Assembly: GCA_964399865.1 (NCBI GenBank)
Contig: CAYNRJ010000001.1
Location: forward strand, 202,050 to 266,049
Length of the DNA: 64,000 bases
Direction: 5' to 3'
From: an uncultured Candidatus Saccharibacteria bacterium
GTDB lineage: Bacteria; Patescibacteriota; Minisyncoccia; Phycocordibacterales; UBA2100
The notes under the pieces were generated by a model. It did not search any database and was not told the origin of the DNA. It saw only the letters and a list, made by a program, of their open reading frames with translations. Numbering within the stretch: the stretch's first letter is position 1; every line of letters begins with the position of its first letter. Of the stretch, positions 9,672-23,415 are shown piece by piece. Both the position numbers and the translations under genes were made by a program.

Positions 9672-10757
9672 TTAAGCTATGAGCCTAGCTATATCGTTGT
9701 AGGTCACAAATACCATGAGAAGGATGAGGAATCCTAATCCAAAGACGTTTACGACCCGCATCGCTACAGGCGGAACACCGCGTCGCAGTACTGTCTCTAT
9801 CCCGAGTACAAAGAGTCTCCCACCATCGAGCGCTGGGATTGGTAAGAGGTTAATGATGAAGAGATTGACCGAGATGAACGCTGCGAGCGTTAAGATCGGG
9901 CCTGCACCATTTTCTGCTGCGTCTCCCACTATCCCGACGAGGCCGACAGGCCCCACGATATTTTGAAGTGCAGGAGCTCCGCGCACCGCATCCTTTACCA
10001 TTCCGACAAGTCCCAGCGTTATTGTTTTGAGGGCATTTTTCGTACTTACAAATCCTCCTTTTATAGCTTCGAGAAGTGGGAGCGGTTCGGCTGTTACCAA
10101 GACGAGTGAGATGCCGATAGCCGGTTGATCCGCAGCATTTGGATTCACGGCGTGTGCCGGTCGCACATTAGCGGTTGCTTCAACACCTCCGCGTTCATAT
10201 GAGATCACTATTGATTCACCGCCGCGCTCGCGGACAAAGTCCGTAACTCCCTGGGGAGTGAGAGCCGGCACTTCACCATTCTCGCCTTTTACGCTCGTTA
10301 CTTTATCGCCAGGAATGATGCCTGCACTCGCTGCAGGAGACGAAGGCACAACGTCAGCAACAAGAAGTGAAGCTGGCGCACCTACTGTTGTACTTTCTAC
10401 TACTCTGGGGGTTCCGAGATATAGCGCGACGGAGAAAAGTATCCACGCAATGAGGAGATTCATGAGTACCCCAGCAAAAAGAATGATCGCTTGTACGCCG
10501 CGATTCTTACTTACAAAACTTCCTTTACCTGTTTCCCCCTCTCCCACATCGCCGAATAAACGTACGAACCCGCCAAACGGCAGCCAATTGAATGTATATT
10601 CTGTACCGCCCCATTTTCCAAATGTGAGCGCACGAGGTGGATAGCCGACGCCAAACTCCTCTACCTTTACACCAAATATTTTCGCGGCAAGAAAGTGCCC
10701 TATCTCATGCACGATGATAAGGGAGACCAGGATCGCGATTACGAGCAGAATCGTCAT
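9672..10757 (-). CDS. rseP: RIP metalloprotease RseP (site-2 protease, M50) with PDZ domain
   Basis: HEIGH zinc motif in TM1, a central PDZ region and a C-terminal LDGG motif. Confidence 0.9.
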   Translation of the reverse strand: MTILLVIAILVSLIIVHEIGHFLAAKIFGVKVEEFGVGYPPRALTFGKWGGTEYTFNWLPFGGFVRLFGDVGEGETGKGSFVSKNRGVQAIILFAGVLMNLLIAWILFSVALYLGTPRVVESTTVGAPASLLVADVVPSSPAASAGIIPGDKVTSVKGENGEVPALTPQGVTDFVRERGGESIVISYERGGVEATANVRPAHAVNPNAADQPAIGISLVLVTAEPLPLLEAIKGGFVSTKNALKTITLGLVGMVKDAVRGAPALQNIVGPVGLVGIVGDAAENGAGPILTLAAFISVNLFIINLLPIPALDGGRLFVLGIETVLRRGVPPVAMRVVNVFGLGFLILLMVFVTYNDIARLIA

Positions 10758-11305
10758 GAGCTCATCTCTTTCTCTTTTCCTTCGAAGGCTTTCTCTAATT
10801 CTTCGTTCGCCTTATCTACTTTCTTTTGCAATTCTTCTTTGAGTCGGAATTTTGCGTCCTCAGTGATCGTGCCCTCACGTTCTCGTTCCTGAATGTCCTT
10901 CCACGCCTCGTCGCGCGCGCCGCGAACTGTCGTTCGGGCCTCTTCCAATTTTCCTTTTGCGACTTTCACGAGCTGTTCGCGCCTTTCTGATGTTAATTCT
11001 GGAAATGTAACGCGAATAGAAACTCCATCAGATGATGTGCCGAGTCCTAGGTTTGCGGCTGAAATCGCCCTCTCGATATCTTTAAGAAGTCCCGCATCGA
11101 ATGATTGCACGCGGAGTGTACGCGCATCTTCTACGCCCACATTTGCTACTTGCTTCATTGGCATCATAGAGCCGTAGGCGGAAACTGATACTCCATCGAG
11201 GATTGCGGGTGAAGCACGGCCAGTTCTAATGCCTCGATACTCCCTCGCGAGCCATTCTCGGGCCGCTGCTACCTTCTCATCGAATGTTTTGAAATCGTAA
11301 GTCAT
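10754..11305 (-). CDS. frr: ribosome recycling factor
   Basis: 183-aa protein with full-length RRF similarity; overlaps the rseP start by 4 nt. Confidence 0.93.
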   Translation of the reverse strand: MTYDFKTFDEKVAAAREWLAREYRGIRTGRASPAILDGVSVSAYGSMMPMKQVANVGVEDARTLRVQSFDAGLLKDIERAISAANLGLGTSSDGVSIRVTFPELTSERREQLVKVAKGKLEEARTTVRGARDEAWKDIQEREREGTITEDAKFRLKEELQKKVDKANEELEKAFEGKEKEMSS

Positions 11306-16220: not shown

Positions 16221-16508
16221 TTATTTTATCACACGAAGTACTTTACTCCCCTTCTGGTGACCCGAGATAATTCGTACCGAACTAGGAGGAACATAGTAGT
16301 GACGCGCTATTAAGACTCGCAATCGATCATTCGCCGCATTATCCTCGGCCTTCTCCTTCACATGCACGACAAACTCGTCTCTTACCGCCTTTCCAAAATC
16401 TGATTTACCAGGATTAACACCCTTCGCAGTCTGGACCACACTTTCTCTTCTTGCTCCGGCATTTACTTTGGCTCGAATTAACATGACTTTTTCAAGTATC
16501 GGATACAC
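16221..16508 (-). CDS. DUF167 (YggU-like) protein
   Basis: The C-terminal region NDRLRVLIARHYYVPPSSVRIISGHQKGSKV matches the DUF167 consensus. The start may be the internal Met at 16484. Confidence 0.65.
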   Translation of the reverse strand: MYPILEKVMLIRAKVNAGARRESVVQTAKGVNPGKSDFGKAVRDEFVVHVKEKAEDNAANDRLRVLIARHYYVPPSSVRIISGHQKGSKVLRVIK

Positions 16509-16522
16509 TGATGAAGTTCTAG

Positions 16523-18187
16523 TTAATGAGGAGAATCCCTACGAGAATGATTACGGCTCCAATGCCTACCATGAGGAGTGCAGTCCACATGTTGGAAATT
16601 ATAGCATTCTTGGCTATACTGCGACCGATTCCCCGGTAGCGCAGCGGTAGCGCAGCTCGCTGTTAACGAGTTGGTCGTAGGTTCGAATCCTACCCGGGGA
16701 GCCCAGAGTTGGAGAGAGCCCGAAGAATCGGGATTTTGGCGCGCGGCGCGAAGCGCCGCGTAGGGAGGATGCGCCGTGCCGGAGAGTTTTTGATTTGTGA
16801 GTTGCAGGTTCGAGCCGAAGATTTTTTGAATTGCGGATTTTTTGGCGGGGAGAGAGGGGTCATTTTGGGTTTGGGCTAGGCTTTGCGCCTCGTGTATCCA
16901 CGAGCGCATAGGTTCGAGCCACGCACGGCCGTCGCGCTCCAAACGGGCTGCGTGCTCGCTTAAAGTCCGCTTGTCGGACATCAGCGCGCGACGCTTCGCC
17001 AAGTATGCGTCGCGCTCGATATCCTGCGCGATGTAGAGGTCTGTGAGGCGGTCAAGTTTGCGCTCGATGCTGTGCATCTGTTCGCGCAAGTCGCCGACCG
17101 CCTGCGAACTCGTGCGCCCTACGTCGCGCTCGTCCTCTTGCATACGACGCTCGAAATACTGCGCCCATTTGGGCGGCATGACAAAGAGTGCGAGGAGGTC
17201 GGAAACATCGGCGGCGAGCGCTTCTTCGCGGACGTAAGACTGCGAACAGCGTGCCGCCGACTTTTTCGTACAGCGATAGTAGGTGTAGCGGTGAGTATTG
17301 CCATTCTTTTGATGCTTCGTGCGCACTTCGGCCGTTATCGCCATCCCACACTCGCCGCAACGCAACACGCCGCAAAGCGCTTGCGGCTGTGTCGTGGTGG
17401 CCTGCGGGTGGCCGCGCTCGGCCATGACCTTTTGCACTTTGTCGAACAGGCGCTTATCCACGATGGGCGTATGTCGCCCCTCGTATAATTCGCCGCCATA
17501 GAGAAAATGGCCATAGTAAAAAGGATTGGCGAGAATGAAGCGCACGCGGTCGTTGTGTATGCGATTGCCGAACAAACTCCGCACGCCGTTGTCGTATAGA
17601 AACTGCCCGATATCTTCGAGGCGCGAATTGCCTCTGGCGTACAAATCAAAGGCGGCGCGGATTACTTTCGATTTCTTGCGGTCGAGCGTGATGCTCTTTG
17701 TGCGCGGGTCGTTGCGATACCCCGCCGGAGCCGTTCCGGGGAAATCGCCGCGCCGCGCTTTGGCGCGCAATCCTCGCGCAGTGTTGGCCGAAAGTTCACG
17801 TATGAATTGATTCGCCATCCCAAACTCTACCGACATCATCAGTACGTTGTCAGCGGGATAGTACGCGCGGTCGTGGGTTTGGATATGTGATATGACGCCG
17901 CTCTGCAAAAGCCACTGTATCTGGCCGCCGTCCACGGGATTGCGCGCGAGGCGGTCGATTTTCCAACACACAATGCCCTGCGCCTCGCCTTTCTGTACCC
18001 GCGCCATCATCTCGTTGAACACGGGACGGCCCGGCTGTTTCGCCGAGCGCTTTTCTACAAACTCCTCGGCAATTTCGAGCCCCTCCCGCCGCGCGAGTGT
18101 GCGCAATTCCGACAACTGCGCCTCGATAGAGAGCACCTGCTTGTCCTCGACATCGGTACTTTTGCGGGCGTAGAGAAAGAAACGCAT
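16523..18187 (-). CDS. large serine recombinase (resolvase N-domain + recombinase domain + zinc ribbon + coiled coil)
   Basis: N-terminus YARKST...S catalytic region, zinc-ribbon motif CGECG...YYRC, and a coiled-coil tail; high GC. The last ~55 codons run antisense through tRNA-Asn, so the true C-terminus probably lies upstream of 16701. Confidence 0.88.
   Translation of the reverse strand: MRFFLYARKSTDVEDKQVLSIEAQLSELRTLARREGLEIAEEFVEKRSAKQPGRPVFNEMMARVQKGEAQGIVCWKIDRLARNPVDGGQIQWLLQSGVISHIQTHDRAYYPADNVLMMSVEFGMANQFIRELSANTARGLRAKARRGDFPGTAPAGYRNDPRTKSITLDRKKSKVIRAAFDLYARGNSRLEDIGQFLYDNGVRSLFGNRIHNDRVRFILANPFYYGHFLYGGELYEGRHTPIVDKRLFDKVQKVMAERGHPQATTTQPQALCGVLRCGECGMAITAEVRTKHQKNGNTHRYTYYRCTKKSAARCSQSYVREEALAADVSDLLALFVMPPKWAQYFERRMQEDERDVGRTSSQAVGDLREQMHSIERKLDRLTDLYIAQDIERDAYLAKRRALMSDKRTLSEHAARLERDGRAWLEPMRSWIHEAQSLAQTQNDPSLPAKKSAIQKIFGSNLQLTNQKLSGTAHPPYAALRAARQNPDSSGSLQLWAPRVGFEPTTNSLTASCATAALPGNRSQYSQECYNFQHVDCTPHGRHWSRNHSRRDSPH
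16630..16701 (+). tRNA. tRNA-Asn (anticodon GTT)
   Basis: Manual fold: acceptor TCCCCGG/CCGGGGA (U1:A72), D-arm GCGC/GCGC, anticodon stem GCTCG/CGAGT with loop CTGTTAA, T-arm GTAGG-TTCGAAT-CCTAC, discriminator G. The 3' tail is GCCCA (imperfect CCA). Confidence 0.85.
16685..16703. repeat. attL core: 19-bp GAATCCTACCCGGGGAGCC at the tRNA-Asn 3' end
   Basis: An exact 19-bp direct repeat of 23520-23538. Confidence 0.75.
16702..16876. repeat. repeat A (~175 bp), inverted copy at 19425-19599
   Basis: Reverse complement of 16702-16800 matches 19500-19599 with a few mismatches. The match continues more loosely to ~16876 and 19425. Confidence 0.7.
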
Positions 18188-18221
18188 AAGTTGTATTATA
18201 CAGTCGTCCGAGATTCAAATT

Positions 18222-19031
18222 ATGAGAACTATCCGCATATATTCAGACGAGAGCAGGCACAAAAACGAGCGCTTTTTGCTCCTTGCCGGACTATGGGTAC
18301 CGGAAGAAAATGTGCAGGTTGTGGAGGATGGGATACGAGCACTCCGCAAAAAGCATGGATATACAAACTCGGCGGGCAAGAAGATAGATTTTCTCGGCGA
18401 ATTCAAATGGACGAAAGCATCCGACAAGTACCTGCCAGTCTATAAAGAATTGGTTGATTTGTTTTTTGATTGGACTAACGAAGACGTGCTGCGCTCGTGC
18501 ACAATGCTTGTGGATACGCATGATCCGATGGTAGTAGAACACAGCAACATCAAGAAGGAGGGGTACTTCAAACTACTCTACCAACTCTACTACCACAACT
18601 CGCATATTCCTGCGATATATAAAATCTTTCCCGACCGCATTACTAATCCGACCCAGCGGAGAGTCAACTTCGAGACGCTCGACAAGTGCCTAGAGGTAGC
18701 ATTTCATAAGAAATTTACCCCGCTGCTTAATCCAGCTGATCGCCCTGGCATTCGTGGCTTTGTAAACAACATTACCCCGACCGACTCCAAGATGACGCCG
18801 TTCATCCAGCTACTCGACGTGATTATGGGAGCTCTTGGTTATTTACAAAACGGGTTATTTAGAAAGCCGGACGCGAAGAAAGCGAAGGTTGAGCTGATGA
18901 AGTATATCTTCGAAAAAATTGCCCTCTCGGGAGCGATAAAAATATCAGGGAAATCCTACTATGTTGCAAAGTCTACCAAGTTTAATATTTGGCTCTTTCG
19001 TCCGAGAAACAAAAAAGGCCCTCAAAAATGA
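18222..19031 (+). CDS. hypothetical protein, DUF3800-like (IRIYSDES N-terminal motif)
   Basis: 269-aa ORF divergent from the recombinase gene with a 35-bp spacer. The N-terminal I-Y-x-DES motif resembles DUF3800. Family assignment is from memory. Confidence 0.55.
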   Translation: MRTIRIYSDESRHKNERFLLLAGLWVPEENVQVVEDGIRALRKKHGYTNSAGKKIDFLGEFKWTKASDKYLPVYKELVDLFFDWTNEDVLRSCTMLVDTHDPMVVEHSNIKKEGYFKLLYQLYYHNSHIPAIYKIFPDRITNPTQRRVNFETLDKCLEVAFHKKFTPLLNPADRPGIRGFVNNITPTDSKMTPFIQLLDVIMGALGYLQNGLFRKPDAKKAKVELMKYIFEKIALSGAIKISGKSYYVAKSTKFNIWLFRPRNKKGPQK

Positions 19032-19214
19032 GAGCCGTTTTTGTGGAGTCCTGGGAGCTGGGTCAGTGCCCGGTGCGACGTAAGTCGCAGGAGACGTCAC
19101 CCAGTAACTCCAAGTTAAAGATACCAGTAATCTGATGAAGAATCAATGATATCCACATTCCTAGAATATCCTTATCTAGCAAGCTAAAAACGAGATTTTT
19201 GTAAAATTGTTAGT

Positions 19215-19256
19215 TGAAATTGGATATGCTGCCTGCAGGCAGCATATCCAATTTCA
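19215..19256. repeat. 42-bp perfect palindrome centred on CTGCAG
   Basis: TGAAATTGGATATGCTGCCTGCAGGCAGCATATCCAATTTCA is fully self-complementary. Confidence 0.85.
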
Positions 19257-19424
19257 TGTGCGGAGTCAATGAAATTAGCACCAAAAATTGCACTCCGAGC
19301 AAGAATTTTGAGGAAATTGAGATCGATGATGTGTTGGAAAACATACGAATACTCTTGAATTATATCAAAAAGCGTAGGGAGTTGCAGTCGCGTGCGCGCA
19401 TGGGTGGGTGGGGCAAGCACGCAT

Positions 19425-19599
19425 GGGTTCTGGGGCCCCTCTCTCCCCGCCAAAAAATCTGCATTTGCATTTCTTCAAAAAATCTTCGGCTTGAATTTGC
19501 ATCCCGCATCAAAAATCTTCCGGCACGGCGCATCCTCTCTACGCGGCGCTTCGCGCCGCGCGCCAAAATCCCGATTCTTCGGGCTCTCTCCAACTCTGG
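19425..19599. repeat. repeat A-prime (inverted copy of 16702-16876)
   Basis: See repeat A; contiguous with IR-L. Confidence 0.7.
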
Positions 19600-19748
19600 G
19601 CTCATCTCTACGAATTCGCTCGAACCTATTTTACTCTGAATTCCTGATGTTCGCGCGCCTTCGGCGCGCTCTCCCTCGCCCCGCCGCTTCTCATGCACTA
19701 TTTATTTTCGCGGGGGTGGGTTCCAAAAAGGAATGGGCGGCGGCGCGA
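19600..19748. repeat. IR-L, ~150-bp inverted repeat (partner 22802-22949)
   Basis: GCTCATCTCTACGAATTCGCTCGAACC...AAAAAGGAATGGGCGGCGG is near-identical to the reverse complement of 22802-22949. Confidence 0.85.
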
Positions 19749-19883
19749 GGGATATTCAAAATAGTATCCAAAGTTATCCACTTTTCAGAACTGTTCACTC
19801 TCGAGAACAAGATATACAATAAGCGTCCGTCTGAGTACCTCCACGTCTTTGCAGCCGGATTTATAGGCTTAATAAGGAAAAGT

Positions 19884-20255
19884 ATGGAATTACCACAAAA
19901 AGTCGTGGACATTCTTTTGAATGCGGACAGCAAAGCGCTCGCAACCACGGGACCGGAGGGACTCAATGTTGTCCCGGTCTCAACCATCACTCTCGTCGAT
20001 GATAAAATATGGCTCATGAATTACTTCTTTAAAAAAACACTTGCGAACATTCTCGCCGAGCCTTCCGTGTCGCTCGTCGGTTGGAAGGGATTTGAGGGAT
20101 ACCAAATACAAGGGCGCGTGGAGTACTGCGACAAAGGCGCTACATTCGAAGAGGCGCGGCAGTGGGTTAAAGAGCGACTTCCGGACCGGGTCTTGAAAGG
20201 ACTTCTCATCATGACGCCGCAGAACGTACACGACGTCTCTCCTACCGCTGCCTAA
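19884..20255 (+). CDS. PNPOx-like FMN-binding split-barrel protein (pyridoxamine 5'-phosphate oxidase family)
   Basis: 123 aa from ATG at 19884 with an AAGGAAA Shine-Dalgarno sequence. The upstream part of ORF 19392-20255 is translated repeat sequence and is rejected. Confidence 0.7.
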   Translation: MELPQKVVDILLNADSKALATTGPEGLNVVPVSTITLVDDKIWLMNYFFKKTLANILAEPSVSLVGWKGFEGYQIQGRVEYCDKGATFEEARQWVKERLPDRVLKGLLIMTPQNVHDVSPTAA

Positions 20256-20261
20256 GTAATT

Positions 20262-20963
20262 ATGAATGCACAGCTCCACGAATACCAAGTGCTTGCTAAG
20301 CGGCTCGAGACGCCAAGTACCTCTACACTAAAACTGCGGCGGCTTAATGGCTCTATTCCAAAATTCCGTGCAGGTCAATACATCACAGTCTACTTTCCCG
20401 ACATTGACCCCGTGCTTGGCAAAGAGTATACGATCTCAAGTTCACCGAGAGAAGAGGAATTCAACATTACCGTCAAAGCAATCGGTAGATACTCGAAGCG
20501 GTTGTGTTCGCTCAATGCAGGTGACACGTTTCTTGCTTCAGGGGCACAGGGGCGTTTCTACCCAGAAGATACTCATTCTGTCTGCATGATAGCAGGCGGT
20601 ATGGGCGTAACACCGTTCCGGAGCATCATACTTGAAACGACGCGGAGTAAATGCCGCGGCGATATACAGCTCTTGTATAGTGGACGATATTCCTTCGACA
20701 TGCCCTTTAGCGAAGAACTCTACCGCATTTCTTGCAAACTACCTTCATTTAAATTTAGGCGATTTGTTACGCGAGACGCAGCGATTCCAAGGGGCGCAAA
20801 GAGCCATCGAATGCGCGCCGAGGATGTTCTCGATACAAAAGAGAGTACAATGTCGCGCGAATACCTTATCAGTGGCTCTCTCGCGTTCGTCTGTGATGTA
20901 AAAGGATTGTTATCTTCTATCTCTGTACCCTCGGAGCGTATTCTTACAGAAGTATGTTTCTAA
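20262..20963 (+). CDS. ferredoxin-NADP reductase-like FAD/NAD(P)H-binding oxidoreductase
   Basis: FAD-binding RAGQYITV-like motif and NAD(P)-binding GGMGVTP motif; 233 aa. Overlaps the nirK start by 10 nt. Confidence 0.7.
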   Translation: MNAQLHEYQVLAKRLETPSTSTLKLRRLNGSIPKFRAGQYITVYFPDIDPVLGKEYTISSSPREEEFNITVKAIGRYSKRLCSLNAGDTFLASGAQGRFYPEDTHSVCMIAGGMGVTPFRSIILETTRSKCRGDIQLLYSGRYSFDMPFSEELYRISCKLPSFKFRRFVTRDAAIPRGAKSHRMRAEDVLDTKESTMSREYLISGSLAFVCDVKGLLSSISVPSERILTEVCF

Positions 20964-22312
20964 AAATCAGTACAGGTGTTGCCGTGTTTGCTATCTTAGG
21001 TATGGGTGTCGTAATTTCGTATTTTGGACTTGAAAATCTCATTACCTTCTTCCCTTTCATCTACTATTCAGTGATACAGGGCATTGCTATCACGGTTGCA
21101 GTGGTCGCCCTTTCCTTTTTTGTGCTTCGCGTTGTGTACCGCATGCACTCGAAACTCCTCGCAATCACGCTTGGCGTGATTGTTGTAGCGGGACTTCTCT
21201 ATATGTGGGCGGACAAAACGTACTCCCCGCACTTTGCGATGCCAGCTTTTATGCACGTCTATCATCCGGGAGGACACCTCCCCGATTTGCCGTTCAAGAA
21301 TGTCGTCACATTCATCAAAAACTTCAGGAATTTCGAGTATGTAGACGATATCGGCGCAGACCCGAACGATGTGCCGCCGCCAATTACCCGCAATTGGAGC
21401 GAGACAGTAAAGATTTCTTTCACCGCGCAAGAAGTGATTGCAGAGGTTGCAGAAGGTGTGTATTTCAACTACTGGACGTTTAATAAGCAAGTGCCGGGTC
21501 CAATGCTTCGAGTGCGCGAAGGTGACACTATAGAAATGACTATCACCAACCATCCGTCAAGCCTCCATCCGCATAATATCGACCTTCACGCAGTTACTGG
21601 TCCTGGAGGTGGCGCGACACTTTCGCGTGTCGAGCCGGGAGAAACAAAGGGGTTCACGTGGAAAGCGCTTCAGCCTGGTCTCTACATTTACCATTGCGCG
21701 ACGCCAAATGTGAGCACACATAACTCGCATGGGCAGTATGGTCTCATTCTTGTTGAGCCGAAGGAAGGACTTCCGCCTGTTGATAAAGAATTTTACCTTG
21801 TGCAGGGAGAACTCTACACGAAAGGTGCGATCGGAAAGAAGGGACTTACCATATTCGACGGCAATGCGCTTCTCGACGGGCTGCCGAACTACGTGACGTT
21901 CAACGGTCGTATTGAAACAGATGGCAATCCCCGCATGAAAGTGAATACGGGAGACAAAGTGCGCATTTTCGTCGGCAACGGCGGCGTCAATCTCATCTCT
22001 AGTTTCCACCCCATCGGCGAGATATGGGACTCCGTGTATCCGGAGGGCGGCATTGGCGGTCCTATAAACAAAAATATCCAAACGACCGCAGTTCTTCCGG
22101 GTGGAGCAAGTATTGTTGAATTTGTTGCGGAAGTGCCGGGAAACATTGTACTTGTTGACCACGCGCTTGCTCGCATGAACAAAGGAGCATGGGCAATTAT
22201 TGAAGTTGAGGGTAGTCCTCGTCCGGATATCTATGCGCCAACCGACGGGTTTGAGGGGTCTTCAGAATCGTATGGTACTGAAGCGACGCACGAAAAATCG
22301 CATCAGAAATAG
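20954..22312 (+). CDS. nirK: copper-containing nitrite reductase (NirK-type two-domain cupredoxin) with N-terminal 3-TM anchor
   Basis: HNIDLHAVTG (type-2 Cu His pair), YIYHCATP...H (type-1 Cu Cys/His) and C-terminal VDHALARM (His306-like). About 100 N-terminal residues form three hydrophobic helices. Confidence 0.85.
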   Translation: MFLKISTGVAVFAILGMGVVISYFGLENLITFFPFIYYSVIQGIAITVAVVALSFFVLRVVYRMHSKLLAITLGVIVVAGLLYMWADKTYSPHFAMPAFMHVYHPGGHLPDLPFKNVVTFIKNFRNFEYVDDIGADPNDVPPPITRNWSETVKISFTAQEVIAEVAEGVYFNYWTFNKQVPGPMLRVREGDTIEMTITNHPSSLHPHNIDLHAVTGPGGGATLSRVEPGETKGFTWKALQPGLYIYHCATPNVSTHNSHGQYGLILVEPKEGLPPVDKEFYLVQGELYTKGAIGKKGLTIFDGNALLDGLPNYVTFNGRIETDGNPRMKVNTGDKVRIFVGNGGVNLISSFHPIGEIWDSVYPEGGIGGPINKNIQTTAVLPGGASIVEFVAEVPGNIVLVDHALARMNKGAWAIIEVEGSPRPDIYAPTDGFEGSSESYGTEATHEKSHQK

Positions 22313-22801
22313 GGAGCCCGCCGCGAATCCTCTCTGCCTCTCGCGGCGGTTTGTGCGCGCACGGGACGGGTGGGGCAAGCACAAGGCCAGACAGAGCCGA
22401 GGTGCATTTCCGCTAGGGCGTCCACGCCCTTGGATGAGCGCCGCCGTTCTCTTGCAAAACAGAATCAAGAATCTTGAGAAAGACGCGGACATGAAAACGA
22501 GGATGGGGGTTGGCGACGACGGTTGGCCGAGCCCTGCCCAGCTCTGCTGGGTGCGCCGCGAAGCGGACGCACGAGGCGAGGAGGAGCTGGGGGGAGGAAC
22601 CCTTTCTCCCCCCAAACAGATGCGTGCCCGAGCCAGCCGCCCGCAGGCGGCACTGGTGAGGAAAAGCACGCTACCTAGACATCTAGGCGCGAGTAGCCCT
22701 AGCGGAAATGTCCGAGGCGGATGCCGAGGATGGACCCCATGGGCTGGACGCATACCATGGCGGTATGAACGAAGGCACCATATTGGATTTGTATTTACCT
22801 C

Positions 22802-22949
22802 GCCCCGCCGCCCATTCCTTTTTGGAACCCACCCCCGCGAAAATAAATAGTGCATGAGAAGCGGCGGGGCGAGGGAGAGCGCGCCGAAGGCGCGCGAACA
22901 TCAGGAATTCAGAGTAAAATAGGTTCGAGCGAATTCGTAGAGATGAGCT
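22802..22949. repeat. IR-R (inverted copy of IR-L)
   Basis: See IR-L. Confidence 0.85.
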
Positions 22950-22983
22950 GACAAGGTTTGAAAAAAGTGTCATAGTTTCTCTT

Positions 22984-23415
22984 ATGTCGCAGAGGTTTGT
23001 TACGCTGATAATTAACTACTCGGCACTATATATTCCAATAGTCGGAGTCCTTCTGTTTTCAGAGCAAGGAAATTTCATACTTATATTCTCAATTTGCTAT
23101 TGGGCAATAATGCTTCCGATGTTCTTGCTGGATTATTTCGGGTCCAGCATCAAACTTGCTGAGGATAGGCTAATTGGCCATTTTTATTTCCTCTTTAAGG
23201 TTTCTGTGCCGTTGGACAAGATTATTTCTATTGAGAATGGCTACGCGCCAGGCATATTGGGGAGGCCAGCGAGCGTCGTTGTTAAGTATCGCAAAGGATC
23301 TAAGGAGGTGCGCTGGGATATGCTACGAGAGGATTACACCGACGAAGCGCTGAGAGATTTTTTAGGGCGACTAGCAACAAAGCGAACGGATCTACACATA
23401 CCTAATCTTACATAA
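22984..23415 (+). CDS. hypothetical membrane protein
   Basis: 143 aa with two N-terminal TM helices; AT-rich, unlike the adjacent IR. Confidence 0.4.
   Translation: MSQRFVTLIINYSALYIPIVGVLLFSEQGNFILIFSICYWAIMLPMFLLDYFGSSIKLAEDRLIGHFYFLFKVSVPLDKIISIENGYAPGILGRPASVVVKYRKGSKEVRWDMLREDYTDEALRDFLGRLATKRTDLHIPNLT

Follow-up and report, generated by a model that had tools for sequence, protein, structure and literature searches.

A conserved operon joins a membrane-anchored copper nitrite reductase to a putative flavoprotein pair that may serve class Id RNR

The copper nitrite reductases AniA of Neisseria gonorrhoeae (1kbv) and Pseudoalteromonas NirK (2zoo) have the same AniA-type class II/clade II two-cupredoxin core as the NirK described here, which also contains their type-2 His ligands, catalytic Asp/His/Ile, type-1 His-Cys-His and SSFH(V/I/P) motif. 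Unlike them, it has neither signal peptide nor lipobox but a three-helix anchor with a Met/His-rich linker, has Gln for the axial Met, and possesses two extra clade-specific His (H205 and H259) flanking the type-1 ligands. A natural NirK with Gln-ligated type-1 copper has already been described, as the proximal type-1 copper of TsNirK from Thermus scotoductus (6hbe; PMC6400189) is likewise His2-Cys-Gln; however, TsNirK is a three-domain protein whose fused C-terminal cupredoxin serves as a built-in donor, it has no membrane anchor, it has Ser for the catalytic Asp that our NirK retains, and it is only distantly related (E = 2.7e-35). The nirK clade of CPR/Parcubacteria is of the same family and host group, and for it the nirK passages of Danczak et al. 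2017 (PMC5581439) report conserved copper ligands and propose a cupredoxin donor, but do not mention axial Gln/Met/Leu variation, a membrane anchor or linkage to RNR or flavoprotein genes. PMC5581439 and PMC11188291 leave the physiological role of nirK in CPR unsettled.

Two further genes accompany nirK at the locus. The protein encoded by the first resembles the D. vulgaris FMN-binding protein and Streptococcus HupZ, both split beta-barrels of ~120 residues (TM 0.75-0.84, identity ~22%), neither of which is known to partner an FNR-like reductase, RNR or NirK. For the second the comparison is Fre of E. coli, which has a historical link to regeneration of the RNR R2 radical and acts as a cytoplasmic donor in two-component systems. 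Fre (1qfj) is of equal length (232-233 aa) and shares the minimal FNR fold, but the similarity is weak (26.9 bits in a PDB search), and our protein has Lys in the flavin motif where Arg is usual. The role proposed here is by analogy with NrdI, the class Ib RNR activase, a small flavoprotein encoded within a class I RNR operon, which together with its reductase uses reducing power and O2 to supply superoxide to the dimanganese site. NrdI has a flavodoxin fold, whereas our protein is a split beta-barrel without sequence relationship to it, and NrdI serves class Ib, whereas the RNR concerned here is class Id and the function is read from gene order only. Class Id RNRs have no tyrosyl radical. Their activase is missing, a gap explicitly stated in the RNR literature (PMC6754362).

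The operon and its surroundings

The window, the whole 64-kb stretch of DNA analysed, belongs to a candidate-phyla (Paceibacteria-type) bacterium and contains three co-oriented ORFs that fill positions 19884-22312 of the + strand: ORF1 (19884-20255, 123 aa) encodes a PNPOx-like split beta-barrel protein, ORF2 (20262-20963, 233 aa) a minimal FNR-fold NAD(P)H oxidoreductase, and ORF3 (20954-22312, 452 aa) the copper nitrite reductase NirK. The original prediction had described them as tightly linked, with 6-bp spacing followed by a 10-nt overlap, and re-reading of the coordinates and junctions found both values exact: a 6-nt gap (20256-20261) separates the PNPOx and FNR genes, and the FNR and nirK genes share a 10-nt stop/start overlap, ATGTTTCTAA. 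It had also proposed looking for this synteny in other genomes, and L168 and L169/L170 (NirK identity 79-80%) indeed have an operon identical to this one in gene lengths and overlap, so the arrangement is not due to chance. The locus is a conserved operon, present without any RNR gene in the window and in at least two other species-level relatives with differing flanks. Upstream lies a conserved leader (19815-19883, + strand; ~80% identity both in an alignment with L168 and L169 and by blastn), in which a -10-like TACAAT (19815-19820) precedes a stretch of ~60 nt that is more conserved than the coding sequence. Nucleotide homology to L168/L169 begins at 19815-19826, and a consensus promoter scan did not flag the leader.

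The operon is flanked by a 161-nt inverted repeat, the left arm of which (19600-19760) is 98% complementary to the right (22788-22948); a Logan contig (L081; 100% match, and possibly the window's own data) ends 47 nt inside each arm. A GC-rich (about 60%) non-coding spacer lies 3′ of nirK (22320-22790, + strand). Its predicted fold is strongly structured (z-score -4.5 on the + strand and -2.2 on the - strand), it has no Rfam match, and a 48-nt block within it (22685-22732) recurs with 94% identity at the end of L114, 3′ of the PNPOx-FNR pair of that contig. On the other side, a large serine recombinase gene (16523-18187, - strand; Pfam Resolvase, Recombinase and Zn_ribbon_recom) has a tRNA-Asn (16629-16705, + strand) inside its 3′ end, a convergent layout that also adjoins the nirK cluster in L002; L056, L058 and L168 also have recombinases close to nirK or PNPOx. 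A second, older inverted repeat (arms 16699-16859 and 19436-19603, 86% identical) brackets the recombinase and a DUF3800 gene, and its latter arm abuts the left repeat arm of the operon at 19600-19603. The large serine recombinase beside tRNA-Asn and the inverted repeats support the mobile context that had been suggested, or a rearranging one. The absence of a classical donor gene nearby was likewise borne out, as a tblastn search of the 64-kb window (not exhaustive; queries from related cassettes) found no relative of cupredoxin, cytochrome b5 or DoxX genes.

The nitrite reductase and its anchor

ORF3 scores 310.9 bits against TIGR02376 (copper nitrite reductase), above the curated equivalog cut-off of 296.3. 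Its residues 130-428 align to AniA and 2zoo with E ~1e-97 (~60% identity to AniA); residues 131-428 are the two-cupredoxin catalytic core. The hallmarks on which the NirK assignment had been based, HNIDLHAVTG, YIYHCATP...H and VDHALARM, are each present, and the protein has the type-1 copper ligands H207/C248/H256/Q261, the three type-2 His (H212/H247/H403) and the catalytic residues D210/H352/I354. Ligand and catalytic residues are invariant across 41 homologues and, with the exception of I354, were also confirmed at their window positions. The type-1 His-Cys-His is present without the axial Met, just as the original prediction had suspected: HNSHGQYG aligns over HIANGMYG of AniA, placing Gln261 under the axial Met. 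Within the NirK clade this position is Gln, Met or Leu, with Gln in 46 of 82 sequences, or about half. As in stellacyanin, an axial Gln should lower the potential of the type-1 site, which would suit low-potential donors. The solved TsNirK has this Gln too (PMC6400189), which makes it a known variant and no reason to exclude the protein from NirK. A laccase-like two-domain MCO, the alternative to be excluded, does not fit, since the models for laccase, CueO and CopA give 19-46 bits where 479-559 are required and the His pattern is that of NirK. Nor is this a three-domain NirK with fused cupredoxin or cytochrome c, as residues 1-139 contain no Pfam domain, but three hydrophobic helices and a linker. 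Its sequence makes ORF3 a true copper nitrite reductase of clade II, with His2-Cys-Gln ligation of the type-1 copper, and predicts conversion of nitrite to NO.

The proposed N-terminal extension with three hydrophobic helices was seen by Kyte-Doolittle analysis and backed by AlphaFold2, which places the helices at residues 2-24, 26-63 and 67-89; the anchor (residues 1-87) is followed by a conserved Met/His-rich linker (residues 88-130, beginning YSPHFAMPAFMHVYHPGG...). An all-library search found this N-terminal module only on NirK N-termini. The anchor is common to the whole NirK clade, so that neither it nor the axial Gln is peculiar to this cassette. From a Lys in the N-terminal tail and a charge of +3 in the TM2-TM3 loop (LRVVYRMHSK), the positive-inside rule predicts that the catalytic domain faces outwards; in the clade alignment longer N-terminal tails are rich in K/R, and variants with fewer helices retain a basic stretch before the last helix. 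The same alignment shows no conserved His or other cofactor ligand in the anchor helices, where only Y38 is near-invariant.

The flavoprotein genes and their neighbourhoods

Pfam assignments agree with the families originally given to the two upstream genes. ORF1 scores 43 bits against PNPOx_N (PF01243; cut-off 28.1, E = 7e-11) and its AlphaFold2 model (pLDDT 93.8) is a split beta-barrel, with HupZ (TM 0.84), the D. vulgaris FMN-binding protein (TM 0.75) and FMN-bound YviC as the best Foldseek matches; threshold and fold both place it in the PNPOx-like split-barrel superfamily. HupZ, the nearest structure, is haem-associated and not a flavoprotein. Invariant in 32 homologues are K17, N28, S33, K51, T52, N55, W67, Q74 and R102, and no invariant His, Cys or Met able to ligate haem is found among them. 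The invariant polar residues, in the absence of an invariant His or Cys, favour a flavin, and ORF1 is probably a cytoplasmic, flavin-binding protein. T31, W32 and N33 of the D. vulgaris protein, presumably the targets of the mutant structures among the fold matches, are not conserved. True PdxH proteins are roughly 200 aa long, well above the 123 aa of ORF1, which matches no NCBIfam family and was rejected as a PdxH. ORF2 contains FAD_binding_6 and NAD_binding_1, both above the Pfam cut-offs, and belongs to the FNR-like oxidoreductase superfamily. Its motifs GKEYTISSSP and AGGMGVTPFRS, corresponding to the consensus GK.Y(S/T).SS.P and AGG.G..PFRS, are conserved in seven homologues, with Lys where Arg is usual. 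Although its PDB matches include BenC reductase, NqrF and Fre, ORF2 falls far below the NCBIfam cut-offs of every named equivalog considered (Hmp, BenC, Fre, NqrF and Fpr), the best score being that of the Hmp reductase module (67.6 bits against 432), while Fre reaches 36.6 bits against 230. By these domains and motifs ORF2 is a minimal FNR-fold NAD(P)H reductase. Neither ORF1 nor ORF2 has a hydrophobic segment, signal peptide or membrane helix, which marks both as cytoplasmic.

Among 80 species-level nirK loci, a PNPOx-like gene lies within 6 kb of nirK at 12, against ~1 expected (~12-fold; binomial P ~2.5e-10, a value to be read with the shared phylogeny of the loci in mind, which are not independent). 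This count and the retention of the operon between different flanks speak against the flavoprotein genes being random passengers. nirK and PNPOx are close to each other in several layouts, whether the NirK is of the Gln or the Met type: L001 and L002 (NirK 82-83% identical) have ArsR-nrdB-nrdA-PNPOx-FNR beside nirK, in L083 and L098 NirK-ArsR diverges from PNPOx-FNR, and in L006, L014, L072, L091, L126 and L133 nirK and PNPOx are adjacent without RNR, which argues for some direct NirK-related role. Any RNR gene is found near nirK at 20/80 loci, with all three classes represented, and an ArsR-type regulator at 16/80 (non-independent counts, like the preceding); nirK is systematically linked to both. 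The PNPOx-like and FNR-like genes are themselves a conserved pair, with FNR directly 3′ of PNPOx in at least 11 loci (L001, L002, L083, L098, L100-L102, L104, L114, L168 and L169) and at least 15 of 40 FNR homologues on a contig equal in size to that of a PNPOx homologue.

Viewed from PNPOx, the picture is dominated by RNR. At 32 of 55 metagenome loci (again sharing phylogeny) the arrangement is nrdB[ATP-cone]-nrdA-PNPOx, in some cases together with the FNR-like gene, nrdA lying directly 5′ of PNPOx, in the same orientation and 6-121 nt away; the main partner of PNPOx is this operon and not nirK. L102, L104 and the P0138 contig carry all four genes as an nrdB-nrdA-PNPOx-FNR operon, and nirK is missing within 6 kb of many nrdB-nrdA-PNPOx operons. 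The linked NrdB is class Id, matching L. blandensis NrdB (5olk) over its full length including the ATP-cone (E = 4e-184) and also F. johnsoniae 6cwo. NrdA-linked and NirK-linked sequences are intermixed in the PNPOx tree and, on its branching, are one orthologue and not paralogues. The setting expected of an activase, inside a class I RNR operon, is seen at these 32 loci of relatives, while the 64-kb window itself contains no RNR gene. PNPOx also stands beside copper-efflux/cupredoxin operons in L087, L095 and L119, which an RNR model leaves unexplained.

What the flavoprotein pair may do

The reading that we put forward, tentatively and at a little under an even chance, is that the pair is an NAD(P)H/flavin module mainly for class Id RNR and that NirK reduces nitrite outside the cell via another donor. 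The pair would work as a two-component module, from NAD(P)H to a flavin reductase to a small flavoprotein, with class Id (Mn2 IV/III) RNR as its principal client across Paceibacteria. Its likeliest job there would be to supply superoxide or reduced flavin to build or maintain the Mn cofactor, as a functional analogue of NrdI and its reductase. The recurrent neighbourhood would comprise nirK, RNR genes of any class, the flavoprotein pair and an ArsR-type regulator; the lineage of the window would have lost nrdBA and arsR from it and joined PNPOx-FNR to nirK in one transcript, in an operon that would now lie within a serine-recombinase island at tRNA-Asn. To turn nitrite into NO outside the cell, NirK would probably draw on an extracytoplasmic donor of low potential whose gene is absent from the cassette, and the flavoproteins would act in the cytoplasm instead of feeding its copper directly. 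On this view the pair may fill the place of the missing class Id RNR activase while sharing both locus and regulation with nirK. That it is this activase and that its linkage to an outward-facing NirK reflects coupled handling of radical chemistry is a fuller claim, and we regard it as rather doubtful. In this version NrdB would receive superoxide that the pair makes from O2 with NAD(P)H, and the NO from NirK would threaten radical enzymes, class Id RNR and its activase being kept in the same ArsR-controlled unit.

In the direct path raised by the original prediction, electrons would pass from NAD(P)H through the FNR-like protein and the split-barrel flavoprotein to the type-1 copper with its Gln ligand, either directly or by way of some membrane component, and this would be a non-canonical way of feeding nitrite reduction in an organism that has no respiratory chain. 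Tight conserved co-transcription including the 10-nt overlap, recurrent NirK-PNPOx nearness with both Gln- and Met-type NirK, the lower potential expected of the axial Gln and the lack of cupredoxin or cytochrome relatives found in the window all suit such a chain. Yet it has no evident way across the membrane, as the NirK core is predicted to be extracytoplasmic, both flavoproteins lack an export signal, and the anchor offers no conserved cofactor ligand and is no known domain, occurring on NirK only. Moreover, there is no PNPOx within 6 kb at 68/80 nirK loci and no FNR at 75 or more, the dominant context of PNPOx is the class Id RNR operon, and plausible extracytoplasmic donors are encoded near other nirK genes, namely a TM/Cyt-b5/cd1-propeller protein (L015, L098) and the products of Cyt-b5, DoxX and cupredoxin genes (L168). 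We consider the direct chain improbable.

We give similarly little credence to a module against NO or nitrosative stress, in which NO made outside by NirK diffuses in and the pair, like a split flavohaemoglobin-type or Fre-type system, consumes it or repairs NO-damaged radical enzymes such as RNR. Its appeal is that the best NCBIfam match of ORF2 covers the whole reductase module of NO-inducible flavohaemoprotein, that haem-associated HupZ is the structure nearest to ORF1, that nirK is linked to RNRs of all three classes, all radical enzymes, and that the nirK passages of PMC5581439 and PMC11188291 report CPR nirK genomes without NO reductase. Nevertheless, the Hmp score is not that of a family member, the split-barrel homologues lack an invariant haem ligand, and nrdB-nrdA-PNPOx operons are often without nearby nirK. 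It is equally unlikely, in our judgement, that the genes share no function and that nirK, RNR, copper-efflux genes and the flavoprotein pair merely gather as mobile accessory genes in one flexible recombinase-associated region, the operon fusion being accidental. Serine recombinases do lie beside the cluster in the window, L002, L056, L058, L105, L119, L168 and the P0138 contig, gene arrangements are highly variable, the window has GC-rich foreign-looking segments as well as inverted repeats, and one chromosomal site holds the nirK cluster in L083 and a copper-efflux operon in L087. Against this, the nearness is enriched over chance and survives many independent rearrangements among sequences only ~45% identical, and both leader and overlap are conserved.

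The preferred reading, an NAD(P)H/flavin module mainly for class Id RNR, bears on a question posed since 2017 (PMC5581439), namely the electron source and purpose of nirK, which is widespread in CPR bacteria without respiratory chains. The obvious 'partner' genes are unlikely to be the direct donors of NirK, and CPR nirK should not be taken as evidence for a self-contained denitrification step. The PNPOx-FNR pair offers a definite candidate, open to experimental test, for the activase still missing from class Id RNR, and if the RNR link is true, the labels 'pyridoxamine 5′-phosphate oxidase' and 'ferredoxin-NADP reductase' would mislead metabolic reconstructions of CPR bacteria.

Operon layout, leader and flanking repeats

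The three ORFs lie on the forward strand and are as tightly linked as the original prediction had read them, with 6 nt between the first two and a 10-nt overlap (ATGTTTCTAA) between the second and third. ORF1 (19884-20255, 123 aa) scores 43 bits on PNPOx_N, above the cut-off of 28.1, and ORF2 (20262-20963, 233 aa) matches FAD_binding_6 plus NAD_binding_1, so that their assignments as PNPOx-like and FNR-like proteins are borne out by Pfam. ORF3 (20954-22312, 452 aa) passes the TIGR02376 cut-off for NirK (310.9 versus 296.3 bits) and contains every one of the NirK motifs previously quoted for it. The same cassette, PNPOx (123 aa)-FNR (233 aa)-NirK (447-452 aa) with an identical 10-nt overlap, is present in the related loci L168 and L169/L170, whose NirKs are 80% and 79% identical to that of the window, respectively; the genes flanking it differ among L168, L169/L170 and the window. 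Judging by protein matches on equal-sized contigs, a 2767-nt contig also appears to carry these three genes, at 81-92% identity. Nucleotide homology of the window to L168 and L169 is limited to 19815-22247, that is, to the operon and its leader. In this alignment the leader (~70 nt, 19815-19883) is conserved, contains a -10-like TACAAT and is ~80% identical compared with ~70% for the coding sequence, suggesting that an operator or a 5′ UTR element is conserved there; a consensus promoter/terminator scan gave no match exceeding shuffle expectation. L169 also has a pyrG-ftsX flank in common with L098, a locus in which NirK-ArsR is divergent from PNPOx-FNR with a TM/Cyt-b5/cd1-propeller gene in between. 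This shared flank suggests that the fused operon arose by inversion and deletion from a divergent ArsR-NirK/PNPOx-FNR order.

A large serine recombinase (16523-18187, reverse strand) is convergent with tRNA-Asn (16629-16705) and runs through it, and the same arrangement adjoins the nirK cluster of relative L002, where the orientation of nirK relative to the recombinase is opposite to that in the window. A 161-nt inverted repeat (19600-19760 and 22788-22948, 98% identical) brackets the operon and a second (16699-16859 and 19436-19603, 86% identical) encloses the recombinase together with a DUF3800 gene, with the two pairs abutting at 19600-19603, an arrangement compatible with a putative recombinase- or homology-driven inversion. 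A Logan contig matching 19714-22834 at 100% identity terminates 47 nt inside each 161-nt arm; these ends fit the presence of the repeat in the reads, and the contig is possibly from the same data. Flanking inverted repeats are absent around the cassette in L168, L169, L056 and the nirK loci L001 and L002, and were therefore rejected as a general cassette feature. That the repeat arms contain an attachment fragment derived from a tRNA was likewise rejected (tRNA-Asn local alignment 18-20 versus a shuffle mean of 17.4), and Rfam returned tRNAs only (whole window at gathering score; 16400-23100 at E ≤ 1). Viral contigs gave two distant NirK cores only and no PNPOx relatives, and thus no evidence for phage carriage of the cassette. 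The GC content is 56-62% in the recombinase gene and in the 22200-22800 spacer compared with ~45-50% nearby. This spacer downstream of nirK (22320-22790, forward strand, 470 nt) is predicted to fold with unusual stability (z -4.5, equalled by 0 of 100 shuffles) and has no credible ORF and no Rfam match. A 48-nt block within it (22685-22732) shares 94% identity with the terminal part of contig L114 that lies downstream of the PNPOx-FNR pair located there. Separately, a perfect 42-nt palindrome of two abutting 21-nt arms is found at 19215-19256, with the DUF3800 gene on one side and the repeat region on the other.

NirK core, membrane anchor and linker

Residues 130-428 of ORF3 align to the solved AniA-type enzymes 1kbv and 2zoo (E ~1e-97). 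This alignment locates the type-1 copper ligands (H207, C248, H256), the type-2 copper ligands (H212, H247, H403) and the catalytic residues (D210, H352, I354), all of which are invariant in a 41-sequence homologue alignment and, I354 excepted, were also read directly at their own positions. Laccase, CueO and CopA models score only 19-46 bits against cut-offs of at least 479. Because the ligand and catalytic set is kept and the multicopper-oxidase models fall far under their cut-offs, a laccase-like oxidase is ruled out and ORF3 is, by its sequence, a genuine NirK; on the TIGR02376 score, the AniA match and the ligands the original identification was right. The AniA alignment also confirms the absence of the axial Met at the type-1 site, as Gln261 (HNSHGQYG) stands opposite the axial Met of AniA (HIANGMYG).

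The axial Gln and the three-helix N-terminal extension had both been put forward as special features of the cassette. The extension itself is supported by Kyte-Doolittle segments spanning residues 1-87 and by AlphaFold2 helices at 2-24, 26-63 and 67-89. However, 2-4 helices are predicted at the N-terminus of nearly every NirK in 80 species-level loci (CPR plus a few Anaerolineales and Woesearchaeota), and the axial residue counts across this set are 46 Gln, 33 Met and 3 Leu. The same Gln occurs in all 110 sequences readable by the type-1 loop pattern when the best 120 database relatives were searched, and Thermus scotoductus TsNirK provides a solved precedent for a His2-Cys-Gln type-1 copper (PMC6400189). 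By these comparisons the anchor is a property of the clade and the axial Gln is common to the large subclade of the window, and therefore neither is peculiar to this cassette. CPR nirK was described in 2017 with ligands called 'conserved' and a cupredoxin donor proposed, its physiological role being left open (PMC5581439). We found no paper on the anchor or on Gln/Met/Leu variation in CPR NirK.

Lys in the N-tail and the loop preceding helix 3 (LRVVYRMHSK, charge +3) place the catalytic domain, by the positive-inside rule, outside the membrane. Throughout the clade alignment longer N-tails are K/R-rich and fewer-helix variants keep a run of basic residues ahead of the last helix, a pattern that fits the same predicted orientation. 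The anchor module has no Pfam domain and was seen on NirK alone; its helices contain no conserved His in the homologue alignment, and a membrane electron conduit was rejected on this ground. The six-helix protein f68, found near nirK or PNPOx (L056, L068), had no Pfam match and is unsupported as an MsrQ/ferric-reductase-like conduit. The linker that follows the anchor (residues 88-130, 21215-21343) is conserved and Met/His/Pro-rich (YSPHFAMPAFMHVYHPGGHLPDLPF; YSPHFAMPAFMHxYHPGG...), with A95, P97, P113 and F120 invariant and no Pfam family; predicted to be extracytoplasmic, it may serve in copper handling or in docking. Two extra His, H205 and H259, precede the first type-1 His and the axial residue, respectively, by two positions; they are kept in 76-78 of ~81 sequences, nearly all membrane-anchored, irrespective of the axial residue, and the second is Asn in AniA and in both Methylococcales-type sequences (L078, L079). 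Together H205 and H259 could form a donor-docking or additional metal site.

The putative flavin proteins and their gene neighbourhoods

The AlphaFold2 model of ORF1 is a minimal split β-barrel (pLDDT 93.8) with HupZ as its nearest solved structure (TM 0.84); FMN-bound YviC is also among the nearest, and the 122-residue Desulfovibrio vulgaris FMN-binding protein aligns with a TM of ~0.75. Across 32 homologues K17, N28, P31, S33, K51, T52, N55, W67, Q74 and R102 are invariant and there is no invariant His or Cys, which favours flavin rather than haem as the probable cofactor. ORF1 was rejected as PdxH since no NCBIfam family matched. ORF2 is a minimal FNR-fold reductase that misses all curated cut-offs and keeps the flavin and nucleotide motifs, its best NCBIfam/PDB neighbours being the Hmp reductase module, BenC, NqrF and Fre. 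Hydrophobic segments are absent from ORF1 and ORF2 alike, and both proteins are therefore cytoplasmic.

With ~6 kb to either side of nirK compared, 12 of the 80 species-level loci have a PNPOx-like gene, 4-5 an FNR-like gene, 12 a 550-aa FAD-linked oxidase and 16 an ArsR-type HTH regulator. A ribonucleotide reductase (RNR) gene of any class lies within 6 kb of nirK in 20 of the 80 (L005, L007, L008, L011, L013, L026, L027, L038, L041, L048, L050, L053, L062, L073, L076 and others). With ~1 in 80 expected by chance when a gene is single-copy and the genome ~1 Mb, the binomial P is ~2.5e-10 for PNPOx and ~4e-15 for RNR, the loci being phylogenetically non-independent; that the cassette is real and beyond chance has held up. 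The RNR genes are class Id nrdB+nrdA, class III nrdD+nrdG, or encode a 758-aa protein read as a putative class II RNR from its N-terminal ATP-cone-like stretch and NPCGE motif. In L001 and L002, which encode NirKs with 82-83% identity to that of the window, nirK is adjoined by ArsR-nrdB-nrdA-PNPOx-FNR; L005 has the order nrdD-nrdG-FNR-NirK. PNPOx directly precedes nirK in L014 and lies downstream of it in L072; in L006 the two genes are divergent.

Some of these loci hold other redox genes. In L015 (3222-5318), L098 (3387-5483) and L138 a gene between the ArsR regulator and nirK encodes a protein of 698 aa in which membrane helices at the N-terminus are combined with a cytochrome b5 domain and a cd1-type β-propeller; it could be an extracytoplasmic partner of NirK. 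L168 has a Cyt-b5, DoxX and cupredoxin gene trio (9870-11120) ~2 kb downstream of the three-gene cassette, and these are alternative donor candidates. A tblastn search of the 64-kb window found no relatives of ArsR, NrdA/B/D/G, the FAD-oxidase, f49, f68, the b5-cd1 protein, cupredoxin, Cyt-b5 or DoxX.

Eight exact-protein look-ups of PNPOx gave contexts. Besides L098, NirK-ArsR is divergent from PNPOx-FNR in L083 and NirK from PNPOx in L091; L096 has nrdB-nrdA-PNPOx, L087 and L095 have a CsoR-DUF305-CopA-HMA/DsbD-cupredoxin copper operon divergent from PNPOx, and two have none of the nirK, copper-operon or RNR contexts. A ninth returned a clean nrdB-nrdA-PNPOx-FNR operon without nirK. PNPOx beside a copper operon at a locus without nirK was seen in L087 (3258-7815), L095 (885-5477) and L119, and in L087 this operon occupies the chromosomal site (dus, serS, dprA, topA flank) of nirK-ArsR in L083.

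A metagenome scan with a single FNR protein gave no match, and one anchored on the PNPOx alignment, used in its place, returned 68 loci. In 32 of the 55 Paceibacteria-type contigs with room to see nrdA, this gene is directly upstream of PNPOx on the same strand (gaps 6-121 nt), making PNPOx the third gene of a class Id RNR operon (nrdB with ATP-cone, nrdA, PNPOx, sometimes FNR). Loci with nrdB-nrdA-PNPOx are L096, L100-L104, L110, L120, L121, L132-L137, L144, L146-L148, L152-L156 and L159-L163, with PNPOx at ~6001 in full-length loci. FNR is directly downstream of PNPOx in 5 of 58 loci, and of the 16 with at least 3 kb on both sides, 5 have nirK at a distance of no more than 6 kb. The linked NrdB matches that of Leeuwenhoekiella blandensis (5olk) end to end, ATP-cone included (E 4e-184), as well as F. 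johnsoniae 6cwo, and is by homology class Id. In a neighbour-joining tree nrdA-linked and nirK-linked PNPOx sequences are intermixed; separate RNR-type and NirK-type paralogues were therefore rejected in favour of one orthologue.

Possible roles of the PNPOx-FNR pair

The original prediction suggested that electrons may pass from NAD(P)H through the two flavoproteins to the copper of NirK. Such a direct chain is unlikely on topological and comparative grounds because the electrons must cross the membrane and no membrane-crossing carrier is seen in the cassette or the NirK anchor, and also because most nirK genes lack such neighbours and the home of the split-barrel gene is the class Id RNR operon. 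We tentatively prefer, with a little less than even confidence, that PNPOx and FNR form a cytoplasmic NAD(P)H/flavin module that mainly serves RNR and is co-located, and probably co-regulated, with nirK via an ArsR-type repressor. The small putative flavoprotein following nrdB-nrdA, accompanied in some lineages by an NAD(P)H reductase, is the obvious candidate for the class Id activase.

An RNR client gives no account of PNPOx beside nirK where RNR is missing, or beside copper-efflux operons, and this persistence keeps three other explanations alive. Indirect electron supply to NirK is improbable; a role of the genes as an NO-stress module is given the same small weight, and mere co-residence of the genes in a flexible island is doubtful to a like degree. 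It is speculation that the linkage of nirK to RNR genes of all classes reflects the NO sensitivity of radical enzymes.

The neighbourhood of nirK, RNR, flavoprotein and ArsR genes in CPR bacteria was previously unremarked. Of most value is a by-product of the analysis, namely this neighbourhood together with a candidate, open to testing, for the class Id RNR activase that the literature calls missing.
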